This document shows positions 16,713-36,300 of a stretch of DNA of 64,000 nucleotides, piece after piece. A program made the translations under genes and the position numbers. The stretch lies in assembly GCA_963758525.1 (NCBI GenBank), contig CAVWVQ010000003.1, positions 4,448,001-4,512,000 of the forward strand. The letters are read 5' to 3'. This stretch comes from an uncultured Phycisphaerales bacterium (GTDB lineage Bacteria; Planctomycetota; Phycisphaerae; Tepidisphaerales; Tepidisphaeraceae). Each line of letters begins with the position of its first letter. The first letter of the stretch is position 1. Under the pieces are notes generated by a model. It saw only the letters and a program-made list of their open reading frames with translations. It did no database searches and had not been told where the DNA came from.

Positions 16713-17114
16713 TCATTCCTTGGGACCTTTCAGTTCCTTCGCCCGCTTAGGCTTGCCGCCCAAACCACGATGCGTTTGGCCCTTTGGAACTTGAATCTTC
16801 GGTCTCGGGTGAGTGACGTTGCCGCCCCAGTCGATATTCAAGTGATCACCGTTGGGTAGCTGAACGTCCCATTCCCAATCTTCAGCCTCGGTGCGGGATG
16901 GCCCCTTGCGCCAACGCCGACCTTTCGAGTCGATGTACTCGCCATTGGAATTTTTTCTAAGAGGTTGGTTGGATCGCCAGTGCCTTGGAGGGACGAACGG
17001 GAATCCGCCGCCGGTCGGCAAATTGTGATCGCTCAACACCTGCCGCTTAAGCTCTTCCTCGTCCTGAACTGCATCGTCAGCGGGTTGAAGCGGTTTCTCT
17101 TCGTGCTTCGCCAC
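16713..17114 (-). CDS. Stand-alone Ntox17-like (polymorphic toxin RNase) domain
   Basis: YIDSKGRRWRKGPSRT..WEWDVQL...HLNIDWGGNVTH matches my recollection of the Ntox17 signature. Confidence 0.7.
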   Translation of the reverse strand: MAKHEEKPLQPADDAVQDEEELKRQVLSDHNLPTGGGFPFVPPRHWRSNQPLRKNSNGEYIDSKGRRWRKGPSRTEAEDWEWDVQLPNGDHLNIDWGGNVTHPRPKIQVPKGQTHRGLGGKPKRAKELKGPKE

Positions 17115-17126
17115 GATACCCCCTGG

Positions 17127-17582
17127 CTAAGCGACGAGCGTGCCGTTCCCATCGGCGTCAACTCGCACACGCACTGTCTTGCCGCCGCCATAAATGACAT
17201 CTTCAGGAACTGTTTGGCCGGTGTCCCATAGGGCTTGCCCATTCAGCACGAACGTTTCCTGAATCGAGGGAAAGTAGACGGAGTAGGTCCAATCTCCATT
17301 AGAATTCTGCGCATCCAAGACGATGCCCGTGCGTCCTCGGGCTAAAGCCACTTCATCGGCCTGTCCGACGGCAACCACCTTGGCGTACTCGGGCAGCGGT
17401 ACGCGCGGGCTACGTTGCGAACGTACCACCGCCAGTATCCCCGTATGAACAAGCTCATCCAGAATGATACGCATTTCACCGACCATCTGGACAAGGCTCG
17501 CCAGCTCGGTTGGCTTTGCCCGCGCGGAGCGCGGGCGCTTTCGTAAGGCCGGTGGTTTGCGTGTTTTTTGAGCTGTCGCCAT
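17127..17582 (-). CDS. Imm31-like immunity protein with N-terminal extension
   Basis: GRTGIVL...WTYSVYF...LWDTG...IYGGGKTVRVRVDADGNGTL. Confidence 0.65.
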   Translation of the reverse strand: MATAQKTRKPPALRKRPRSARAKPTELASLVQMVGEMRIILDELVHTGILAVVRSQRSPRVPLPEYAKVVAVGQADEVALARGRTGIVLDAQNSNGDWTYSVYFPSIQETFVLNGQALWDTGQTVPEDVIYGGGKTVRVRVDADGNGTLVA

Positions 17583-22947: not shown

Positions 22948-23202
22948 ATGATGGTCATGGTGAAGAAGCTGGGCGGCAGCGTTGCCGTTGTCATCCCCAG
23001 GGCATTGGCGCGCGAGATGGAACTGGTTGAAGGGACTCCGCTGGACATCAGCGTCGACGCCGCGGGCATTGTCCTGAGGAAGCAAGGGCGTCGGCCGCGG
23101 CGCTCGTTGCGCGGGATCGTGGCGCGGATCGACCCGAAGAGCTACCGCCGTCACAGTCGCGAGCTGTCGGAAGACCGGCCTGTCGGAAGGGAGATCTGGT
23201 GA
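22948..23202 (+). CDS. mazE: AbrB/MazE-family antitoxin
   Basis: VKKLGGSVAVVIPRAL; ends PVGREIW; overlaps the toxin start. Confidence 0.9.
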   Translation: MMVMVKKLGGSVAVVIPRALAREMELVEGTPLDISVDAAGIVLRKQGRRPRRSLRGIVARIDPKSYRRHSRELSEDRPVGREIW

Positions 23203-23555
23203 GCAAGCGAACCTACCATCCCGATCGCGGCGATTTGATCGAAATGAACTTCCAACCCGCGGCCGGCCGCGAGATCGACAAGCGACGTCCCGCCGTCATC
23301 CTCAGCCCCGTGACGTACAACCGTCGCTCGGGCATCTGTCTCGCCGTGCCCACCACCACCGACTTGACGCCTGGCCCGCTCTGGCTGCCGATGCCCGCCG
23401 GTTACCTCGCTTCGCCGAGTCTCATTCTTTGCGACTACGTCAAGAGCTTTGACTACCGTGAGCGATCCGCATCTTTCATAAACCGGCTGCCTCTTGAACT
23501 GGTCGAGCAGATCATCAGCAACATTCTGGACCTGATCGACCCGGCCTCGGTATAG
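23199..23555 (+). CDS. mazF: PemK/MazF-family endoribonuclease toxin
   Basis: PDRGDLIEMNFQPAAGREIDKRRPAVILSP..YN, DYVKSFDYRER. Confidence 0.92.
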   Translation: MSKRTYHPDRGDLIEMNFQPAAGREIDKRRPAVILSPVTYNRRSGICLAVPTTTDLTPGPLWLPMPAGYLASPSLILCDYVKSFDYRERSASFINRLPLELVEQIISNILDLIDPASV

Positions 23556-23603: not shown

Positions 23604-23639
23604 AAAAGAAAAGAGGCGCTCGTTTGCACGAGCGCCTCT
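23604..23639 (-). terminator. Intrinsic terminator after the slipin gene
   Basis: agaggcgctcgt-ttgc-acgagcgcctct hairpin followed by a T-tract on the minus strand. Confidence 0.75.
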
Positions 23640-23642
23640 GAC

Positions 23643-24770
23643 TCACTCCTTATTGGCAACCAGCCCGCGGATCTGCTCCGTCAGATCCCCGTTGCCGAAG
23701 ACGAACGTCGCCTTGGTGCCGGCGAGGACTTCCTTCAGCATTTCCAGCTCCTTGAGCCGGGCAAGCTGCGGACTCTCCGCCAGCAGCTTCGCCGTGTTGG
23801 CCTGGCTGCGGGCGGCGGCGGTCTCTTCACGCCGCTTGATCAGGTTCGCCTCGGCTTCCTTCGTCGCTGCGATCACCTGGTTCAAGAGCGTCTTCATGTC
23901 GCCCGGCAGGATGATGTCCCGCAAGCCGACACTCTTCACCGCCACGCCGATTGCCTCGGCGCGCGCGGCCAATGCCTGACGCACTTCCGCACCGACCGCT
24001 TCCTTGTCGCCGAGCAGCGCATCGAGCGTCTTGGTCCCGACGGCCGCCCGGAGAACCAGCTGCGCTTCGCGGTAGAGCGCCTGCGCGTAATCGCCGACGC
24101 TCGTCACGGCCTTCACGGCATCCGTAACGACCCAGGTCACCAGCAGGTTCACGCGGAGCGTGACCTTATCACTGGTCATGATTTCCTGGCCCGCGACGTC
24201 GGCGACCTGCTCCCGGCGGTCGATCGTCTTCCAGGTCACCTTGCCGGTGCCCTTCCAGAAAACGTGCAACCCGCCAGCGAGCCGATCGACGAGAATGCCG
24301 TCGCGGTAGAGAAGCACATCCTCTTCCGCGCTGACCATGACCCCGTCGAACCACTTGGTCGCATCCGGCGACGCCAGGATCGTCTGGAGCTTGGCGTGCT
24401 CGAAGCGGAACGATTCGATCGAAAACGTCTCGACGTTCAGCTTCGCGGCCGTCTTCCAAAACGCGTAGCGCCCGGGTCCGAGGATCGCGAACAGCCGGTC
24501 ATCCTTCCAGACGACCGCCCGCTCCCCGTCGGCCAGGTCCACGACCTGCAGTGCCTCGCGGAGCTGCGCGTTCACGAGCAGCACCTCAAGCAGTGCATGC
24601 TCGAAGCGGGTCTTGAGCGTGTCGGCGATCTCGACCTTGTCCCCGTTTACTCCACGGCCCAGGCCGAGCAACCACCGCGACTTGACGTGGGCGCCGGGCA
24701 TGAGCAATTCCGCGAAGTCTCCATCACGGAACCACAGTCCACGCTCGTGCTGACGAATGCGAATCTTCAC
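23643..24770 (-). CDS. Slipin-family SPFH/band-7 protein
   Basis: Repeated ERG.L..DG...LGPG.Y.FW units, GQEIMTSDKVTLRVN, RDIILPGDMK, RREETAAARSQANTAK; GTG start with GAGAGG RBS. Confidence 0.9.
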   Translation of the reverse strand: MKIRIRQHERGLWFRDGDFAELLMPGAHVKSRWLLGLGRGVNGDKVEIADTLKTRFEHALLEVLLVNAQLREALQVVDLADGERAVVWKDDRLFAILGPGRYAFWKTAAKLNVETFSIESFRFEHAKLQTILASPDATKWFDGVMVSAEEDVLLYRDGILVDRLAGGLHVFWKGTGKVTWKTIDRREQVADVAGQEIMTSDKVTLRVNLLVTWVVTDAVKAVTSVGDYAQALYREAQLVLRAAVGTKTLDALLGDKEAVGAEVRQALAARAEAIGVAVKSVGLRDIILPGDMKTLLNQVIAATKEAEANLIKRREETAAARSQANTAKLLAESPQLARLKELEMLKEVLAGTKATFVFGNGDLTEQIRGLVANKE

Positions 24771-24789
24771 GATGCACCTCTCTTTCATT

Positions 24790-25166
24790 CCTTCTGCAGC
24801 CGCCTTTGGCGGATTCACCCAGCCGCGGCCTCGCCGATCGCGGCACCATTTCGAACCTCTTCCGTCCAAACACCGTTGCTCAAACAACACAGGCCGAAGC
24901 CCGGCCCGCCCGTGCGCCCGCCGATCCGGCGGGATCGAGTTTCGACGCGGTTCGTCGCGAAGATCGAACCGGCGCACGCCACCCTTCGTGCAACCGGTCT
25001 TGTTCCATGGCGACGACGCCGCGGCAAACTTCCTCGACCGCAAGCCATCAACGGCGTCGCGGATGCCGCAGGAACCAACCGCCGAAGCGGTCAATTCGCC
25101 ACGATCATCCGCCGGCGTCCGTGCGGGCCGGGGTCTTCGAACCTGTTCAGTTACGCTTCGCAGCGT
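24790..25166 (-). ncRNA. Putative structured RNA between the tRNA-like element and slipin
   Basis: Several GC hairpins (e.g. accgc-ttcg-gcggt, ccgcc-aaa-ggcgg) and three GGTTCGA T-loop-like motifs; no convincing protein. Confidence 0.4.
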
Positions 25167-25238
25167 TGTTAGTGACGGGAGTCGAACCCGCTACCGCAAG
25201 GTTATGAGCCTTGTGCTCTTCCAATGAGCTACACTGGT
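25167..25238 (-). tRNA. tRNA-like gene, anticodon CAT (Met/Ile2 type), acceptor stem only 4 bp
   Basis: D arm GCTC/GAGC, anticodon arm CAAGG-CTCATAA-CCTTG, T arm GCGGG-TTCGACT-CCCGT; AGTG/CACT pairs but the outer three positions mismatch; no CCA. Confidence 0.8.
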
Positions 25239-25363
25239 GGTCTTCATTCATGGCGTTTCGATGCCGTTCGCGGAACGCGCGCAGGGAATCTCCCAGGCGG
25301 GCCGCCGGCCGCCCTCAAACGAAGTCGATCGATGCCCCGGCACACGCCGGCGCATCATGTATC

Positions 25364-25401
25364 AAAACAAAGAACCCCGGAGGGAAACGCCTCCGGGGTT
25401 C
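25364..25401 (-). terminator. Attenuator-type intrinsic terminator
   Basis: 12-bp stem gaaccccggagg/cctccggggttc followed by TTTGTTTT, about 25 nt after the leader ORF stop. Confidence 0.8.
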
Positions 25402-25425
25402 GGTGATTGCAGTATATGAATCAAC

Positions 25426-25536
25426 CTATCGCGGAGGACATCTCCCAATGATGTACAGTCCATTGGCGTATGGCATCACGCCGCCGGCTGCTGATCGGAG
25501 TTCCGATTCAAATTGTGATTTCGTCCACGCGTTCAC
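25426..25536 (-). CDS. Putative 36-aa leader peptide MNAWTKSQFESELRSAAGGVMPYANGLYIIGRCPPR
   Basis: GGAG RBS plus GTG start; lies between the promoter and the terminator; C-terminal RCPP. Confidence 0.6.
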   Translation of the reverse strand: MNAWTKSQFESELRSAAGGVMPYANGLYIIGRCPPR

Positions 25537-25562
25537 GAGTATCTCCAATAACTGAGGCGGGA

Positions 25563-25590
25563 AACATAACTCAGAAAATAAAGATGTCAA
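25563..25590 (-). promoter_or_regulatory. Sigma70-like promoter TTGACA-N16-TATGTT
   Basis: Perfect -35 box in an AT-rich patch about 27 nt upstream of the leader ORF. Confidence 0.55.
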
Positions 25591-25658: not shown

Positions 25659-26624
25659 TCACGGTGTCACGTGCATACCGTCCCGGGCAAAACGCACCGG
25701 ACCGTCGAAATTGCGGCGGATCGACGCTAGAACGGCCACGTGCGCCTCGTCGATCGTTGGATTCAAATGCGTGAGCAACAACGCGCCGACATGTGCCCCC
25801 GCTGCAACTTCCCCTATTTTCTTCGGCGGCGTGTGCAAGGCATATAGAATTGCCGGTGAGCCCGGCGGATCCAGCACAACGGTATTGAAAACCAGCAGAT
25901 CGCAATGATCGGCGATGACGCGAAGATTTTCCAAACCGGTCGCATCGATGTCGCCGGAAAACACCACGCTACGGCCTTTATAGTCGACGCGATAAATGAC
26001 GGCCGGGGCGTCGAAATGATGGCCCGCGATCGCCTCGATCCGCAGTCCATTCTCTGCCAGCAATGTCTGCGGCCGAGCGCCCGGCTGCAGTCGGGCATCC
26101 ACATCCGTTGCAGCGATCGTCAGCGGCGCGGAGAAATCAGCAAGATACGCAAACGCGCCCTGCTTGCCGAAGAGCAAATCTATGAACCGTTTTGTCGATG
26201 GAAACTCAGCAGCGCCGCTGGGGCCGAACACCTGAAAATCGATTGGACCTCGGGTAGCGACTACGCGCGCCTTGAATATTCCCGGCAATTCGCTGGCATG
26301 ATCGATATGCAGATGCGTGAGCAGAACCAGGTCGAGGTGATCGAGCGAAACATTGGCTTCACCAAGCCGGGCGAACGCACCCGAGCCCGCGTCAATGAGA
26401 ATTCTCGGCGAGCCGTCGAGCGAAAGAACAAAGCAGGTCGACGCGCGACCGACGGCGCCAGGGCCGCCCGAACCCAAGACGATCAGATCGAGTATTGCTG
26501 GCCGCGATTCGGCCAAGGGCGTTCCTGAGCGTGCATTTGCGGGTGAGTGCTCGGCTGGCGCGCACCCGGTTCCGATCATGAGGCACAGCACCGCGATCCT
26601 TGTGCAAATCCGCGGGACTAACAT
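25659..26624 (-). CDS. MBL-fold metallo-hydrolase (RNase Z/arylsulfatase-like), probably exported
   Basis: VLGSGGP, LIDAGSG, THLHIDH, FSGD, HTPP, LTHL; lipoprotein-like N-terminus. Confidence 0.85.
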   Translation of the reverse strand: MLVPRICTRIAVLCLMIGTGCAPAEHSPANARSGTPLAESRPAILDLIVLGSGGPGAVGRASTCFVLSLDGSPRILIDAGSGAFARLGEANVSLDHLDLVLLTHLHIDHASELPGIFKARVVATRGPIDFQVFGPSGAAEFPSTKRFIDLLFGKQGAFAYLADFSAPLTIAATDVDARLQPGARPQTLLAENGLRIEAIAGHHFDAPAVIYRVDYKGRSVVFSGDIDATGLENLRVIADHCDLLVFNTVVLDPPGSPAILYALHTPPKKIGEVAAGAHVGALLLTHLNPTIDEAHVAVLASIRRNFDGPVRFARDGMHVTP

Positions 26625-27496: not shown

Positions 27497-29857
27497 TTAT
27501 TTCAGGTTAAATTCAATTTGTTTTGCGCGATTGATAGACATGTGCAGTGTTGCGTCGCGAAGTTCCGGCCGGGAGACGAGGAATTTTGCCAGAGGGGTCA
27601 CGACGAGCGTTTCGATGGCGCGCTGCAGCGGGCGAGCGCCGTAGCGGTGATCGTAGCCGGCGATACACAGCTTTTTGCAGACGTCGTCGGTCCAGCTCAA
27701 GCGGATGTTGCTGGCTCGCAGCCCTTCGCGCTGGCCGAGCTTTTTCAGCTCTGCTTCGGTGATCCCGCGGATGGTCGACTCGCTGAGCGGAGCGAACGTG
27801 ACGACGGCGTCGATGCGGTTGAAAAATTCCGGGCGGAAAAAGCTCATCGCCTCGCTGTCGTAGTCGCTGGCCGGCGCGGTTGAAAGTCCGAACGACTCCA
27901 TGCGGTCGGCGCCGAGATTCGACGTCATGATCATCAGCGCGCTGCGGAAGGTCGTGAGCCGCCCGAAACGGTCAGTGAGGCGTCCTTCGTCAAAGACGCC
28001 CAACAAGAGATCAAACACTGCGGGGGCGGCTTTTTCGATTTCATCCAGCAGCACCACCGTGAAGGGTTGCTCGCGGAGGCGTTTGATCAGTTCCGACGGC
28101 TCGCCACCGGGCGGGCCGATCAATCGTTCGGCCGCCCCCGGGCCGGCGAATTCGCTCATGTCGAGCCGGAGCATGCGCTCGCTTTTCTTGCCCATCGCCC
28201 CGAGCTGATCCTCACCTTGCCCGAAGAGAAAATCGGCGATCGTGCGTGCCAGCTCAGTTTTGCCGACGCCGGTTGGACCGCAGAACAGCAGCACGCCAAG
28301 CGGACGCCGCGGGTCGTTCAAGCCGGCCTTGAACGTGGTGATGACCCCCGCGGCGGCGGCGTACGCGGTCTCCTGTCCCATCACTTTCGCACGAAGCGCC
28401 GCCACAACGTCTTCAACTTTCAGCGGCAGTTCGTCGCGCAGAAAAAGCTCGGGCAGGCCGGTGAGCTTGATGAAGCGATTGATCACACTTTGGGAAGTTA
28501 CGATTCCTTTTGTGCCATCAGTTGCATGATGTTCGATGTCGGCGCGGTCCTTTGTGCTGCGGGCGGCAGTCGCGGCGCGTGACGTGCGGTCGAACAAATC
28601 GCGCAAAAACCCCGCGGCGCAGCCGGGGAAACTCTGGTACGGCATGAACCGCGCGAAGAGGCGATAGATCTGGGGAATGGCATCGCGCGCGTAATCGATC
28701 TTGAGATTTTGCTTCGCGACTGCGGCGAGTTGATCGAGGGCGGCAATCGCCTGCGAGGCATTGAACGGGGGGATTTCCACGATGGAGAAGCTTGCCGCGA
28801 AGCTCGGGAGCAATCGCCGGCAGGCGTCGAGCTCGGCGATGGTGGCTTCCCCGACGACCCGCATCTCGCCGCGCTGCAGGTATGGGACCAGGAACGCGGC
28901 GACGCTGTCGCTGGGCGAAGAGCCGCCGGTGCGAACAAGCTCCAGCAGGTTATCGACGCAGAGAATACCTTCTATATCGGAGAGCTTCTCGATGACCTCT
29001 TCGATGCGCTCCTGCCATTGTCCCAGATATTTCATCCCCGCGATGAGCCTGGCCGCGCTGCTCAACCAGAATCGGCTGCGCACGTGCGCGGTGTTTGCGG
29101 CATCGGGATCATCCGATTCCAACCCGTCGCGCTCCAATTTGCGCGCCGCTTCGGCCAACACCGTCGTTCTGCCAGACCCGTTTTCCCCCAGCAGCAGCAC
29201 GCTGGATCGCGAGCGGCCGAGAATGTCGACGAGCCTTGCCACTTGCGCATTGCGCTGCCACGGCCGCGAAAGACGCCGCCGCGTGCCGCGACTGCCCAAC
29301 GGTTCGGCAATGAGCGGCAGCGGATCGAGATCGGGCGGAACCTCGCGCTCCGATGCTCCCGACGGAATATGCACCGTGGCATCGTCCAAGTGCACGTCTG
29401 CCGGCGGCAAATAGCGCGACAACTCGCGCGGACTTTTTCCCTTCATCGCAGCCTGTATGTAGTGCGGCGCCAGGCCCTGCAGATCGGCCTCATCGTCGTA
29501 GGTAAATCGCACGCCGATGGTGGGCATTGAGCAGAGATACAACTGCGAGCGATCTCGTCCCAGCACCGACGGAACCCGCAGCGTGATCGTCTGCTTCAGC
29601 GAAAAGACTCGATCCTCCGTCTTATATTCCGGGCGAACGTCTGCCATCAGCCAGACAAGCTTTGGCTCGTTGAAATTGGGGCGGGAGAGCGCCTGGCCTC
29701 GTTTCATCCGCCATTGCAGAAGCTCCTTGATCTGCCCTGCGACATCGGCGCCGGTAATGCCGACGGTGGCAATGTCGTTAGGATCTTCCACCAGGCAGCC
29801 GGTGCAGCCACCGCCGGAATGCTGCCAGATGAGAATGGGATATCGGTAAGTCGGCAT
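27497..29857 (-). CDS. Atypical ClpA/B-like double AAA+ protein C (degenerate D1, intact D2)
   Basis: GENGSGRT / CVDNL; GPTGVGKT / LLDEIEK; MTSNLG, FFRPEFFNRID, YGARPLQRAIE. Confidence 0.88.
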   Translation of the reverse strand: MPTYRYPILIWQHSGGGCTGCLVEDPNDIATVGITGADVAGQIKELLQWRMKRGQALSRPNFNEPKLVWLMADVRPEYKTEDRVFSLKQTITLRVPSVLGRDRSQLYLCSMPTIGVRFTYDDEADLQGLAPHYIQAAMKGKSPRELSRYLPPADVHLDDATVHIPSGASEREVPPDLDPLPLIAEPLGSRGTRRRLSRPWQRNAQVARLVDILGRSRSSVLLLGENGSGRTTVLAEAARKLERDGLESDDPDAANTAHVRSRFWLSSAARLIAGMKYLGQWQERIEEVIEKLSDIEGILCVDNLLELVRTGGSSPSDSVAAFLVPYLQRGEMRVVGEATIAELDACRRLLPSFAASFSIVEIPPFNASQAIAALDQLAAVAKQNLKIDYARDAIPQIYRLFARFMPYQSFPGCAAGFLRDLFDRTSRAATAARSTKDRADIEHHATDGTKGIVTSQSVINRFIKLTGLPELFLRDELPLKVEDVVAALRAKVMGQETAYAAAAGVITTFKAGLNDPRRPLGVLLFCGPTGVGKTELARTIADFLFGQGEDQLGAMGKKSERMLRLDMSEFAGPGAAERLIGPPGGEPSELIKRLREQPFTVVLLDEIEKAAPAVFDLLLGVFDEGRLTDRFGRLTTFRSALMIMTSNLGADRMESFGLSTAPASDYDSEAMSFFRPEFFNRIDAVVTFAPLSESTIRGITEAELKKLGQREGLRASNIRLSWTDDVCKKLCIAGYDHRYGARPLQRAIETLVVTPLAKFLVSRPELRDATLHMSINRAKQIEFNLK

Positions 29858-29860
29858 TGG

Positions 29861-32800
29861 CTACTGCTTCGGGCTTGCGGAAAAGTCCTGCGGTATCGGA
29901 AGCTGCGCGAATATGAGTTTGCGAAGTTCGACGGCGCGTGGCAAACCGCGCATCGACATGCCGGTGCGAAGATCGACGGTGACGTTCGCAGGGTCGTAGG
30001 TTCGCACGATCGGGTTGAGCGGAAATGGATTGGGTGTGTCCGCGTCGCGTTGGATCGATGCGCGCCAGGCGAGATCGCGAGCGCGAAGTTCTCGCAGGAC
30101 GGCGTGGGCATCGGCATGGCCAAGGGGTATCACAGTCACCTGAACGACGATCACCTGCTGGCGTTCGCCGATAAACAGATGCGTGCCTTGTTCGCTGGCC
30201 ATCACGATGGCAATGCCGGGCATTTCCATGACGATCGCGTGTTCGCGACAAGCGGCAGGATCCGGCGCGTGAATCTCGCCCGTGATCCTTGCTGCGGGCG
30301 TCTGCTTGGCGGAAGTTGTCTGCGTGGAGCGTTTCGATTTGGATGCTTTCGTTGCGGTCTTGTTGGGCGTGCCATCATGGGCGGATGAATGCGAAGCAAG
30401 ATCGGACGCCACGAATCCGTATCCCGGGAGGAACAACTGGTGATAAATTCCGGCAAGCGCTTTGAACTGCTCGGCGGCGCTGGGGTTGGGGGTGCGCATC
30501 CAGACAAGGCAGCGGTCTGATGCGGGATCGCTCGTGGCGATCACTTCAAGCAGGGACACCTCGTGGATGAGTTCGGCCAGTCGATCTTCCAAGATGTGTT
30601 CGTCGGCGCTTTGCGGGTCGCCGAAGGTGTGCCCATCGGGCTCGAGCGCATGAAGCTGCGCTTCGGTATCCGCTGAGGCGCGAAGGCCGGCGCGGTTATC
30701 TCCGTCGGAGAGGGCGCGCAATTTCTTGCCCGAGCGTGGGGCGCGAATTGGGGGGCGAAAGGCGATGGTCTTTTTTGGCGCAGCGGCGAGTCGATCGATG
30801 CTGGCAATGAACCTGCGGATGTGGTCCGCGTATTCGCGCGCTGCCAGGTAGCGAAACTGCGCGGAGGATACTTCCCCCTGTTTCAGCGCAGGCAGGCTTT
30901 GTGAAGCGGCTGCGTTTTGTTCGAAGCGATGGATCGCCAGCTCCGCCCGGTCCAGTACGTCTGCCCAGTCGGTCAGATCAATCGTCACCGGCTTCAGCGA
31001 GCGTCGCTGGGCGTTTACCAGCGTCTCAACGCGCACCGCAATTCCCGAGTGTGCGGGATAGAGGTGAATCACGGCCGGAGCATCGGGCGCAGCCCCGGCA
31101 AGGTGAGCGGCGACGGGGCCGGTCAGTTGCCGCTCGATTGCGCGTTTCAGCGCCCTGCGCCGAGTTGCGGGTGATACCCCTCATCAACGACCTTCTCCAG
31201 CGCCGCGGGATCGACTGACATCACGCTACGGCGATGCGCCAGCCCATCACGACGCAGGATGTCGCCGATCAACCGCTCGGCGATTTCCCCGATCTGCCGG
31301 CGCGTAAGCCGCTCGAACGGAACGATACGGTCGATGCGGTTGACGAATTCGGGGCGAAAGAAATTCTCCGCGGCGCCGATATACGACTGGCGGTCGGACT
31401 GCCCGGCAGGACGAAGACCGAAGTGGGCGCCGGCCTGGCGCGCACCGAGGTTAGACGTCATAATGATGATCGCATTGCCAAAATCCGCGGTACGGCCCAG
31501 CGCATCGGTCAGGCGGCCTTCGCCGAGCACCTGCAACAGCAGGTCAAACACCGCCGGGTGCGCCTTGTCAATCTCATCGAGCAGCACCACTGAAAACGGC
31601 TGGCGGCGAACCGCGGCAGTCAATAAACCGTCGGGGTCAGACGATGTCCCGTTCAATCGCGCGGCGGCGTAACCGTCAGGAAACTCGTTCATGTCGAAAC
31701 GCAGCAGGCGCGTTTCATCGCCGAAGAGATATTCAGCCAGCGCCTTGCGCACTGAGTTTTGCCCACGCCCGTTGGGCCCAAAAACAGAAACGCCGCCAAC
31801 GGCCGGCCCGGATCGTTCAAGCGCGCTTTGGCGATGACGACGGCATCAGCGATCGCGTCCAGCGCCTCGGTTTGTCCGGTAACGTGCGCCGAAAGCGCCG
31901 TGATGACTTCTTCCCGGGGCAGGCGATTGCGATCGTCGAGAAACTGCAGCGACAGCCCGCTGCGGCTTCGGATTTCACTGAGCACCTCCTGGCGGCCGAT
32001 TGGCTTGCCTTCGAATTTCGCGGCCAGCTGGCGATAGAAATGCGCCGATTTTCCCGGCTGCGCCGATTCCCGCAGATATCGGTTGGCCAGATCCACGACC
32101 AGGGGCAATACCTCGAGATTGAACCGGCACCGATGCTTTCCTTCCAATTGTCGGCGGACGCTGAAGAGAATCTGCCGGGTTTGGGATTCGGCGGCGGGAC
32201 GAATTGGGAGGATATGAAAGAGATCGGCAAACCCGCGATCCCGCTCCCGCAGCGCGCGGAGGGCTGCGGGGGTGATTTCCGCCAGCAGGCGAAAGTCCTG
32301 TCGCTCGATGTACGGCTTGATCACATGTGCCACCGTGAGGTCCGAATCGCGCGAAAGCCCGGCATAATACAGGCCAAGCAGATCGTCGAAGTAGAGAATG
32401 TGATCCTGCTTGATCGATTCCTCCACGATCGCAGTGACGCGGTTCTCCCATTGTCCGACATACATCATCCCCGCGATGAGCCGTTGAGGCGCCAACAACC
32501 AGAAATTGTTGCGGGAGGTATGCGGAGTCTTCCTTTTGTTCACCCGGTGATAAACGCACTCGTGGATGACAGAGGTCTTTCCCACCTGGGGCTCGCCCAC
32601 CAGGAGCACCGGACGCCGCTGCTTTCCGGAAAGCACCTTTTGCAACTCCTCCACCTCGGCGTTGCGCAGAACCGGGCGATCGAGTTCGTCGGGATAAAGC
32701 CAATCGAGGCACCGGCCCACTTTCTGCAACTCCGCCCGCCCGGTCATCCGCCTGGCGGACCCGAGCATCGCCATGAGGTCATTTTCCTCTTTTTCCAACT

Positions 32801-33319
32801 CCGGCTCGACGGAGATGGAGAGATCAACCGGCGTGACCCATTGCCGATGGCTGGAAGTGAATTCCGCCGGAACCTGAAACTTGCCGGATTCTTTTTGCAT
32901 CGCGGTGAAATGATCGACCAGGATATCGCGGGCGCGATCCAGCACGCGCTGCCCGCGGGTGATGTCGAACCATCTGCCGGGCAGTGCAGGGATCATTGCG
33001 ATGCGCCGGCCGAGCGCCTGGAAGGAGATCACCAGCACCCGGCAATCGGCCGTTCCGCGGTCGAGCAGCACTCGCGTCTTGAGGTGGTCTTCATCGATCT
33101 CCGGGCAAAACATCCAGCGGAGCAATTGGTCGTGGCGCGGATGCCTGGCGAGATTATCCAGAAGCTTCCGCAATTCGCGGGTGAGCTTTGCAGTCGCCCG
33201 GCTCAGTTGCTCATCCTGGGCATGGGGATTCGCGCAAAAAGCGGGCGCACGGTAAAGAGCGGCCCGGCAGTGTTTGGCCGACGAACTTCACTGACCAGCA
33301 GCGGTACTGTGATGTTCAT
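29861..33319 (-). CDS. Atypical ClpA/B-like AAA+ protein B with C-terminal release-factor-like domain; frameshifts near 33238, 31750 and 31155
   Basis: MNITVPLL start; GEPQVGKT / YFDDL; GPTGVGKT / LLDEIDK; GYHPQLGA; C-terminal SEQGTHLF and IVRTYD..VDLRTG. Confidence 0.8.
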
Positions 33320-33347
33320 TGATCCATCACCATCATGGGTTGCGCAG

Positions 33348-36300
33348 TCACGACTCCATTACCGCCCAGGCAGCCTGGCGAAGCTGTCTCTCGACGGCAT
33401 CCTCCAACACCGCTGTGAAATCGCGGGTAAAGCGGAGCTCGGCCTGCAATAATTCATCCTTCACGATCCCGGCGTCGCAAGAATAGGTACGCCGGGCATG
33501 ACTTGCCGGTATATCAGTCGGCCAGTCCTCCCTCGCCATGGGAATATATTTGCTGAGCGACTCCGCCTCGCTTTCGACGATGCAATGGACGGTGCTGGTG
33601 TTCCCCCGAAAAATGTGAATTCCCCGCTCCGCGGCAAAACGAAGCCGGGCATGCATTCCGGCGATGGAAAGCCCGATGCCGATTGCGGACGGCTCCGGCG
33701 CTGCAAGATATTTGGCGATCTCCTTGATCGGACTCCGGCGAAAACCCTCTTTTCCGCGGGATTCGTACCAGCAGGCATCGACCGCATAGGAATGCGTCGC
33801 GGCGATGCCGCAATAGACCGCTGCCAGCTCGTGAACGCGGGCGCGGTCACCGAGAATGCCGATGACGACATTGTGCGGCCTGGCAGTTTGCATCGCCAGC
33901 AGCGACAGCAGCAACGCTTCGAAGCGAACCCGCAACCGGTTGATCTCTTCGCGCTGACCAGAGAGCCCGGCGGGATTGGATTGGTAGAATGCCGACAGGC
34001 AGGCATTTTCGATCAGATCGATCGATTGGGAGAGGTGCTCCAGCGCGTCTGTAATCTGGCGAAGCAACTTCATGCGCCCAGCGCGGGCCTCATTGAAGAT
34101 CGGTTTTTCTTTGGATTTGCGCCGGGCTTGCTGGCGAGCCTCTTCCTGTTCGAGGCGGAAGAGCTGATTGACGACTGTCAGCACCGCGGCGCAGCGCTGG
34201 CATTTCTGCACGTCGCGGCGGACCTGTGCGCAATCATCCGCCATGGTTCCGATGATCGCCGGCGGTGCCGTGGCGCCGCTATGCGCTGCGCTCGCACGGT
34301 GATTCGGATCGCGCCGTTTTCGGCGGTGGCGTCGGCTTCCAGCGGGAGATCGGGCGAATATGCATTGACGGCATCGGCGAGCGGCGCGAGAAGCTCGCGC
34401 TCGACGGCGCGCTTCAGCGGTCGGGCGCCGTAGCGGATGTCATATCCGCTTTTGGCCAGATGGGTCAGCACTTCAGCAGATAATCGCAAGGTCATCCCGC
34501 GAAGCTTGACGCCGTCCCGCTGCGCAACGAGTTCGATTTCCCGCCTGGCGATCTGCTCGATGACATCCCGCTCCAACGGCAGGAAGGGGACGATGCGATC
34601 GATGCGGTTGAAAAGTTCGGGTCGGACGAAATCACGGACTTCATCGGTGAAATGGCGTTCGGCGTCAGGCTGGCCCGTCGGGCCGGATGGGCCGGTGGTT
34701 CGATTGAGACCGAAGTTCCCGCGGCCAAAGGATGCCGTTCCAAGGTTGGAGGTCATGATGACGATGGTGTTCGAGAAATCAGCCAGCCGGCCGGCGGCAT
34801 CGGTCAGTCGCCCCTCGCCGAGCACCTGCAGCAGCAGATCGAGGAATGCCGGGTGAACTTTTTCAAATTCATCGAACAGGATGACGGAAAACGGCTGCTC
34901 GCGCACTTTGGCGGTGAGCAGGCCTTCGTTGCCATGTGAAGTCCCGATCAGCCGTTCGACGGCGGCGGGCCCGGCGAACTCGCTCATGTCGAAGCGGGTG
35001 AGGCGCGCGCGGTCGCTGAAGAAATATTCGGCCAATGCCTTGGCCATTTCGGTTTTGCCAACGCCGGTTGGCCCGATGAACAGCAGTGATGCGATCGGCC
35101 GATTCGGGCGCGTGAGAGAAGCTTTAACGGTTGCCAGCAGATCCACCACAAGTTCGATTGCGCAACTGGCCGATCAGTCGGGCGGCGAACCAGTCGTGCG
35201 CTGCGCACAGATCAAGCGGCACGCGCGGATCGAGCATGAATCGCGGCAAACCGGTTTCTCTGGCGAACGCATCAATGACATCAGCCGGCGTCAGCGCGCG
35301 ATCGGCGGGAACGTCCTTGAGGAGATTGAGCAGGAACCGCGCCGGCCGCCCGGGGTACGCGGAATACGTGGCAAAGCGCCGATGCAGGCGGTCGAGGGCG
35401 GGCAGCCAATCGTCCTCAATCGTCACCGGGCGCTGCTCCCCTTCGGCGATGCTGCGGAGGATCCTGCGGCCGGTGGGAATATCGGGTTCTTCGACGCGTA
35501 ATTGACGGAACAGCTCCAGCAAATAGGGATCGAGACGCTCGATGAAAGGCAATTGCTCAGGCGTGCATTCGGCAATCACGAGGACTTCGCCACGGCCGAT
35601 ATATTGCCGGAGAAATCCCGCGATTCCGCCGCCGCCACCAACTCGACCCACCTGCATGAGTTCGATGAGATTGCCGACGTGGAGGATGGCGTTTTCGCGG
35701 GCCGCTTCTTTGCACAAACGTTGCGTGCGCTGCTCCCACATGCCGTAACCGCTCATTCCGGCGATCAGGCGCGCCCCGCTGGTAGACCAGACCGGCGATC
35801 CTGCCCGCAACGATTTCCACCGGCGGACGAGTTGCTCGACGATGGCCGTCTTTCCGCAGCCGGACGGGCCGATCAGCAGCACGCTGCGCGGCCCGGTAGC
35901 GCCCAGCGCGTCTGCCAGATCATCCACAATGCCATCCACTTCGTAGGCCGGGCGCAGCGGTTTTTCGCCGAGCACAAGCCCGACCTGCTCGATCACGAGT
36001 TTGCCCTTGGATTGGCCGTCGCTCTGGTCGTCCTGCTCCCGCTGGCGCGCGGTCTTCAGTTGCACGGGAAAACTGAGCGGAATGACCTCGGTCTTGCTCG
36101 TGCGCTGCGATAAAGCAAGTTCAAAGAGCGATTCGACGATTTTTAAACGCTTGATTGCCGCGAGGATCTGATCCTTCAGCAGGGCGGACATTTCGGGTTC
36201 GCGCCGGCAAATCACTTCGATGCCAAGAACCGGGACGTACGCGAGAAATCCCTCGCTTGCGTGTCGCCAGCGAACGATATCGAAGCGCAGCGCAATCGGA

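Follow-up and report, generated by a model that had tools for sequence, protein, structure and literature searches.

A large structured RNA with a tRNA-shaped core forms a conserved unit with a slipin gene behind a predicted ribosome-coupled attenuator

In a 64,000-nucleotide (nt) stretch of the genome of an uncultured Phycisphaerales bacterium (contig CAVWVQ010000003.1; the whole stretch is referred to below as the window, and positions are its own), comparative sequence analysis indicates that an RNA element of ~430 nt with a tRNA-shaped core forms, together with the slipin gene downstream of it, one conserved unit found in several phyla. The apparent tRNA of this locus corresponds, as judged by covariation, to the core of the element, set between a 5' hairpin and a 3' rod. 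Structure and gene linkage together provide good support for viewing the unit as a larger, differently regulated variant of the predicted b7a-tRNA/Band-7 module. A preliminary description of the locus had placed a TTGACA promoter, a 36-amino-acid open reading frame (ORF) ending GRCPPR, a terminator, a tRNA, the slipin gene and a second terminator on the minus strand, and each of these was recovered in its place. That description had passed over a conserved hairpin domain (25320-25246) between the first terminator and the core, and had listed the tRNA and a 'structured RNA' as separate parts, which instead hold a fixed order and spacing together with this third, upstream domain. The parts, all on the minus strand, are as follows.

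25563..25590 (-): sigma-70-type promoter, TTGACA-16-TATGTT (4 promoter-like sites against 0.8 expected)
25426..25546 (-): leader ribosome-binding site (GGAGA, 5 nt 5' of the start) and ORF
GTG 25536 to TAG 25426 (-): GTG-started 36-codon leader ORF ending GRCPPR
25432..25444 (-): predicted antiterminator strand (Arg-Cys-Pro-Pro codons), complement of 25395-25384; duplex -17.1 kcal/mol
25364..25401 (-): attenuator terminator, 12-base-pair (bp) hairpin and U tract
25246..25320 (-): RNA 5' domain, a long hairpin containing two short helices that covary, a bulge of 2 nt and an internal loop of T-loop-like form
25167..25238 (-): tRNA-like core of b7a-tRNA type, anticodon CAU, 4-bp acceptor stem (ARAGORN, Rfam)
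24881..25146 (-): RNA 3' domain, a long closing helix, a side hairpin, a rod with conserved internal loops, a variable tip and a U-rich tail
23643..24770 (-): slipin gene, 375 amino acids, Band_7/SPFH (Pfam Band_7 E 8e-26)
23604..23639 (-): operon-closing terminator

The core of the window matches the Rfam tRNA family at 51.4 bits with the outer three acceptor pairs open. Its D, anticodon and T arms are intact and its acceptor pairs join 25235-25232 with 25174-25171, in agreement with the well-formed arms and short acceptor stem first reported. To these we compared related cores in an alignment (A2) comprising 47 of 60 sequences, picked on the core pattern alone, with 13 tandem, truncated or mis-picked cores omitted. 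In A2, 88.4% of cells are paired and 25 of 33 pairs show two-sided changes, against 33-43% pairing in slid controls. Pairs of the anticodon and T stems are kept in 97-100% of sequences with many two-sided changes, and the D stem is invariant, partly through the selection of sequences. Conservation of the acceptor pairs, read from the core outward, falls from 45/47, 46/47 and 43/47 through 34/47 and 23/47 to 13/46 and 15/46, and a 7-bp acceptor stem occurs in none of the 47 relatives, so that the proposed tRNA mimic with a short acceptor stem is borne out in this alignment. The anticodon drifts, with 20 triplets among 39 seven-nt loops, and the loop is shorter than 7 nt in 8 of the 47. CAU itself occurs in only 7, which speaks against the earlier suggestion of a CAU-specific decoy for anticodon nucleases; four further CAU tRNA genes are present in the genome. 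The 7-bp acceptor stem and the conserved anticodon in a 7-nt loop that would mark a functional tRNA (Met/Ile2) are both lacking. The arrangement also departs from that of YrlA, in which the acceptor stem is closed by a loop that lies between the T arm and the D arm: here the arms follow the normal D-anticodon-T order and the acceptor is open. The lack of an encoded CCA in the window core, correctly reported, is uninformative here because none of the 63 canonical tRNA genes of the same genome encodes one. On this comparative evidence the core keeps the tRNA elbow, while the features of decoding and charging are not kept.

Covariation extends into both flanking domains. Helices of the 5' domain are 94% and 86% paired, with switches among CCG/CGG, CCA/UGG and CUG/CAG, and its internal loop matches the T-loop consensus. 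The 3' domain, 250-350 nt long and downstream of the core, was aligned in 30 of 59 windows (alignment A3, n = 30). Its 38 pairs are 86.5% paired and 32 of the 38 show two-sided changes, against 36-43% in slid controls; these covariation figures, like those of A2, are inflated because the structures were read from the alignments that were counted. Parses that required pairing were excluded from the counts as circular. The 3' domain of the window itself is divergent and mis-registered in A3, and we accept its fit to the model because its own fold has the same architecture and because 10 of 13 substitutions at paired sites relative to close relatives preserve the pair. The three domains occur in fixed order and spacing; in most loci the 5' motif precedes a single core by 36-52 nt. 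Each domain closes on itself, and no pairing was found that would join one domain to another. Consistent with the hairpin-rich sequence noted earlier between the tRNA and slipin, the region 24770-25370 folds with z = -5.8, and none of 20 shuffles was equally stable. An Rfam search of the window region and 14 related loci matched tRNA as the only family, with no Y-RNA family among the matches; weak Rfam matches were rejected as terminator look-alikes.

Slipin matches were found in 16 of 140 other genomes of the family, in 23 of 300 genomes of the class and at 72 loci of named genomes, and 98 loci were analysed after 8 duplicates were dropped. The closest named homologues belong to Tepidisphaeraceae and other Phycisphaerae. 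Under a strict pattern, a tRNA-like core was identified upstream of slipin in 56 of the 80 loci with at least 700 nt of upstream sequence, the carriers including Planctomycetota, Desulfobacterales, Acidobacteriota, Lentisphaerae and Pelagicoccus. Without exception the RNA precedes slipin and shares its orientation. We also searched from the RNA side with a model of the 5' domain (R1, 48 sequences), which scores the window copy, a member of its training set, at 52.5 bits and matches 68 of the 80 slipin loci, including 22 of 34 outside the training set. Across 141 genomes of the family R1 gave 12 matches; all 10 under E 1e-4 lie in genomes with slipin, including 3 held-out ones, and the model missed 7 slipin-bearing genomes. 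Two weak matches (E 0.004 and 0.01) in slipin-less genomes had no tRNA-like core by eye and were set aside. Among 150 genomes of the phylum there were 16 matches, 4 of them loci already in the analysed set, with slipin within 1.5 kilobases (kb) downstream in 15 and a core in 13; one (L152) had neither and was rejected. The element is single-copy in each genome. No significant R1 match was obtained in 8 distant loci (E. coli, Burkholderia, Photobacterium, Bacillota, Bacteroidota), and shorter tRNA-like or T-arm pieces are visible by eye in distant loci of Proteobacteria, Bacillota and Bacteroidota. At one E. coli locus (L135:3690-5916), for example, a sigma-54-like motif is followed by a shortened element that retains a T arm, then by slipin and a gene for a nucleotidyltransferase. 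One strict pattern gave no matches in viral contigs and no slipin homologues were found in 50,697 phage records at E 1e-30, neither of which demonstrates absence.

The association of slipin with RNA-repair loci, suggested in the preliminary description, is supported by the gene neighbourhoods: of the 98 loci, 22 have rtcB, 16 have rtcA and 14 have rtcR, and among the 37 loci with at least 2.5 kb on both sides the corresponding numbers are 12, 8 and 8 (identities verified by Pfam on locus L078). A sigma-54 motif was identified in 14 of the 98 loci, 12 of them beside rtcR, and rtcR is present in none of 20 loci with an attenuator. The recurring order is divergent rtcR, sigma-54 motif, RNA, slipin, rtcA and rtcB; RNA and slipin therefore sit where Salmonella has Rsr and Y RNAs (10.1101/312249; for this and the other articles cited here the comparison covers part of the text). 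The window was rightly said to lack rtcB. The genome does carry the gene, at C3:3600830, where a further leader ORF and five tRNA genes precede it. RtcR and TROVE gave no match in this 91% complete genome, and no Ro60/Rsr partner was found among the recurrent neighbours of related loci. At six loci (L074, L080, L085, L096, L114 and L116), long tRNA arrays that include an HNH endonuclease gene end in the RNA-slipin unit. Three Clostridia loci (L110, L112 and L115) carry two WYL/WCX-domain genes followed by a divergent RNA that keeps the GGATACCG motif, slipin and rtcB, and possibly represent a fourth type of control.

Upstream of the RNA, an attenuator-type terminator was found in 28 of the 98 loci, and 20 of these 28 also have a short ORF, preceded by a ribosome site, whose end lies 52-63 nt ahead of the U tract, which upholds the leader-ORF/terminator unit first proposed from the window alone. 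The stop codon of the window leader lies 54 nt before its U tract; the same ORF-terminator spacing was seen at 25 of 674 terminator-like hairpins genome-wide. A similar promoter precedes 17 of 22 leaders. The leader peptides have no common sequence beyond a proline-rich end: proline is among the last five residues in 17 of the 22, Pro-Pro in 10, and R-x-P-P in 2. Of the 10 Pro-Pro pairs, 8 are written CCT-CCG, the complement of the terminator 5' arm, and one leader retains DPPG although its antiterminator strand lies upstream of those codons. Translation of Pro-Pro is slow, and it is possible that it slows the ribosome at the end of the leader. The check suggested earlier, for an antiterminator overlapping the RCPP codons, returned the 25432-25444 pairing tabulated above. 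Across 20 loci, the leader end pairs with its own terminator at a mean of -15.8 kcal/mol and with foreign terminators at -13.0 kcal/mol, and none of 20,000 permutations was as low. Two held-out loci repeat the layout, one of them without any Pro-Pro yet with a compensated antiterminator. A leader ORF at a set distance from a terminator, combined with alternative pairing, identifies these loci as putative ribosome-coupled transcription attenuators.

The logic of the switch is predicted from a folding model. With the terminator 3' arm still in the polymerase, the antiterminator has a probability of 0.85-0.99 when no ribosome is present or the P site has advanced up to codon 29, and is lost once the P site is at codon 31 onward (codons 31-37). 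A ribosome on RCPP hides the antiterminator, and a stall there therefore predicts termination. Because the Pro-Pro-bound ribosome hides this strand and R-x-P-P is not conserved, read-through should follow a failure to reach the end of the leader and not the R-x-P-P stalling previously put forward as the trigger. Elsewhere in the genome, three clusters of spare tRNAs (C3:3599640-3602164 (+), C3:3763600-3766480 (+) and C3:43670-44500 (-)), one of them followed by rtcB, each carry a promoter, a leader ORF of 27-29 amino acids and the same hairpin motif directly 3' of the stop codon. This motif was found at those three genomic sites only and has the appearance of another kind of attenuator, serving a translation-stress regulon.

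The slipin belongs to the slipin subgroup of the SPFH family, having a Band_7 domain and a C-terminal helix, with homologues annotated 'slipin family protein'. A structural model built with an 85-sequence alignment (predicted local distance difference test, pLDDT, 87.7; a single-sequence fold reached 43 and was unusable) comprises three N-terminal beta repeats, an SPFH domain and a long helix. No transmembrane segment was detected in the protein, the highest 19-residue hydropathy being 1.36. Stomatin is nearest by both profile and fold (Z 17.0 over residues 133-354). Among the matches listed, MVP chains are the only ones to reach the N-terminal repeats (Z 10.8-12.1, root-mean-square deviation 7-9 A), a hint, at the level of modelled structure, of MVP likeness. 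Like stomatin and the eukaryotic vault, in which an MVP cage is found with vault RNA, the protein combines a stomatin-like SPFH domain with a long helix, and MVP aligns to its repeats; unlike them it has no membrane anchor, is much shorter than MVP, and matches MVP more weakly than stomatin. An article on MVP-like proteins (10.1101/872010) leaves slipins unmentioned in the part covered.

Several known systems share features with this unit. The b7a-tRNA was predicted beside Band-7 and RtcB genes (Burroughs and Aravind 2016) and is called unvalidated in a citing paper (10.1101/312249), on whose description our comparison is based. By that description the core matches the predicted b7a-tRNA, and here too a tRNA-like RNA adjoins a Band-7/SPFH gene, with rtcB adjacent in 22 of the 98 related loci. 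As cited, however, the b7a-tRNA is tRNA-sized and strongly resembles tRNA, whereas the core reported here is embedded in a ~430-nt element with two more covarying domains, behind a predicted leader attenuator, and rtcB is not linked to it; more may be described in the original paper. Rsr (Ro60) with YrlA/YrlB in rsr-yrlBA-rtcBA operons (PMC4201824, PMC7790460) occupies the same slot before rtcB/rtcA under RtcR control, and Y RNAs likewise retain a tRNA elbow, whereas the proposed partner protein here is SPFH rather than TROVE and the core shows a normal tRNA topology, anticodon arm included. The Listeria rli80-hflXr attenuator (PMC6310831) similarly combines a short ORF with alternative terminator and antiterminator and an output for ribosome or RNA stress. 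In contrast to it, the present leaders lack a conserved drug-sensing peptide motif, the predicted antiterminator strand is formed by the last codons of the ORF itself, and the output would include a large noncoding RNA. The RAPP/RGPP arrest peptides share the C-terminal Pro-Pro but lie upstream of protein-localisation genes, and their R-x-P-P is not conserved here. In Anabaena, rtcB, a slipin gene and the tRNA array stay repressed by TrcR as long as translation stress is absent (PMC10272220), and the rtc locus of P. aeruginosa contains an SPFH gene (PMC13086221), with a CCA-less 'tRNA-Arg4' that is expressed from between rtcR and the SPFH-bearing rtc cluster (PMC13637947). For the larger RNA and its attenuator we found no description in literature titles and the beginnings of abstracts, a search that did not extend to most subscription journals or to the supplements of structured-RNA surveys.

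We consider it likely, with a probability of roughly 0.6, that the locus is a two-part operon in which a non-chargeable RNA and a soluble slipin act together as an RNA-repair accessory, switched on through the ribosome-coupled attenuator when translation falters. This explanation is favoured because of the covariation, the non-chargeable shape of the RNA, its linkage to slipin, the rtc context, the evidence for attenuation and the Anabaena TrcR precedent; from these we infer both the repair role and induction by translation stress. In such an operon, promoter, leader ORF and terminator precede the RNA, as seen in the sequence. A healthy ribosome is predicted to reach the last codons of the leader and mask the strand that pairs with the terminator, so that transcription would end at 25364, and Pro-Pro together with the stop codon would prolong ribosome dwell and favour termination. 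Were a ribosome to stall before approximately codon 30, or not to load, the last codons would pair with the terminator 5' arm and polymerase would read through. The transcript, if expressed, would fold into the 5' hairpin, tRNA elbow and 3' rod indicated by covariation. The RNA might then bind the slipin oligomer and offer its elbow to repair or tRNA-handling proteins such as RtcB, by analogy with the role proposed for Y RNA with Rsr in rsr-yrlBA-rtcBA operons, and in other lineages RtcR and sigma-54 would stand in place of the attenuator. A bolder version, which we hold to be doubtful though conceivable, is that slipin and RNA assemble in bacteria into a vault-like ribonucleoprotein. In it a cage of soluble SPFH protein would hold a large RNA whose tRNA elbow serves to catch repair enzymes or damaged tRNAs, and three sensors that converge on translation damage (RtcR, TrcR and the leader attenuator) would induce it, each in different phyla.

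A number of observations weigh against the proposed repair operon. Both RNA structures were read from the alignments used for counting, and the 30 A3 windows were those whose motifs looked clear by eye. A CCA occupies positions 74-76 in 15 of 59 cores; other offsets reach 4 at most and the background is 1.7%. One phylum match has a 7-bp acceptor with ACCA. Some members may accordingly be processed like tRNA, and the in-register CCA may be either a vestige of tRNA origin or a processing signal. As to the attenuator, only 8 of the 20 terminators have their own leader among the 3 best-ranked, and the pairing signal comes from 8 of the 20 loci; per-locus shuffles reach p <= 0.05 in only 5 of the 20, and related loci are not independent in these statistics. 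The signal is thus a collective one, weak per locus. Furthermore, once the whole hairpin is out, the terminator wins at equilibrium at every ribosome position (P >= 0.96), which means that the switch must be kinetic. A nearby rtcB was found in only 12 of the 37 loci with ample flanks. In P. aeruginosa, deletion of the rtc-locus SPFH gene had no phenotype in the non-translation assays covered here (PMC13086221), and 'tRNA-Arg4' was not raised when Rtc proteins rose (PMC13637947). Finally, the sole RNA run found, a metatranscriptome matching 6% of words, covers only contigs of relatives at depth 2-4 and shows neither the level nor the ends of the transcript.

Four other explanations were weighed. 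The element might instead work in cis, as a 5' leader of riboswitch or T-box kind controlling slipin and the repair genes downstream, with no free RNA partner involved. This would suit its constant position 5' of slipin, the U-rich tail that ends the 3' domain in 10 of 30 loci (background 4%) and the T-loop-like motif of the 5' domain, T-loops being used in T-boxes. We regard this as unlikely, given that the 3' domain stops 40-713 nt before the slipin match and short of the ribosome site, that three family loci (L017, L019 and L024) carry an ORF of 113-165 amino acids without Pfam match between RNA and slipin gene, that 20 of the 30 loci lack the tail, and that the operon is already under attenuator or RtcR control. 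Slightly less probable again is that the transcript is cut into small RNAs (the 5' hairpin, one or two tRNA-like pieces and the 3' rod), with only the tRNA-like piece, the predicted b7a-tRNA, being of consequence. Self-closed domains with no pairing between them fit such processing, as do the tandem pairs of cores seen at some loci, the in-register CCA, and the shorter Proteobacterial and Bacillota copies with R1 scores below significance. Fixed order and spacing argue the other way, however, the flanking domains covary and co-occur across phyla, and an acceptor stem of 3-6 bp would be a poor substrate for RNase P, of which a 7-bp stem is a major determinant (PMC4201824).

The mechanism of the preliminary description, in which ribosomes stalled on RCPP cause the terminator to open and anticodon nucleases are decoyed by the CAU-bearing product, appears improbable. 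The window leader does carry RCPP, most leaders have a proline among their last five residues, with DPPG kept outside the pairing strand in one, and a mazEF pair lies next door; nevertheless R-x-P-P is rare, a ribosome on those codons masks the antiterminator strand, the anticodon is not conserved, and mazEF is not found again in the neighbour clusters. A tRNA pseudogene in decay, whose GC-rich flanks fold by chance, would account for the broken acceptor stem, the drifting anticodon, the vestigial CCA of some relatives and the many copies at the ends of tRNA arrays, but this reading is for the most part refuted already: every tRNA arm and both flanking domains show compensatory changes, each genome has a single copy, and RNA-first matches lead to slipin.

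Several neighbouring features were also recorded. The mazE-mazF pair (22948-23555, plus strand) converges on the slipin terminator. Just upstream of the promoter lies a metallo-beta-lactamase-fold gene (25659-26624, minus strand) that gives weak matches of RNase Z-like type and seems to encode a signal peptide; it is not a recurrent neighbour. An ORF with an Ntox17 domain (16713-17582, minus strand; E 6e-12), preceded by an ORF without Pfam match, possibly constitutes a stand-alone toxin-partner pair. Several Clp-like AAA ATPase ORFs form a row at 27497-35149 (minus strand), one of which apparently changes reading frame near 31700. Just before the start of the window (C3:4444824-4445528), tandem palindromic repeats were miscalled by ARAGORN as five tRNA-Ser genes.

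For the family as a whole, these results would turn the untested b7a-tRNA prediction into a defined class of large RNA with covarying domains, missing from Rfam 15, and would mean that genes annotated as tRNA-Met or similar upstream of slipin are not tRNAs. The unit is a candidate for a second RNA-protein module of bacterial RNA repair beside Rsr/Y RNA, with an SPFH protein as the partner, and its predicted attenuator would follow a simple logic, on when the leader is left unfinished, that makes sharp mutational predictions.

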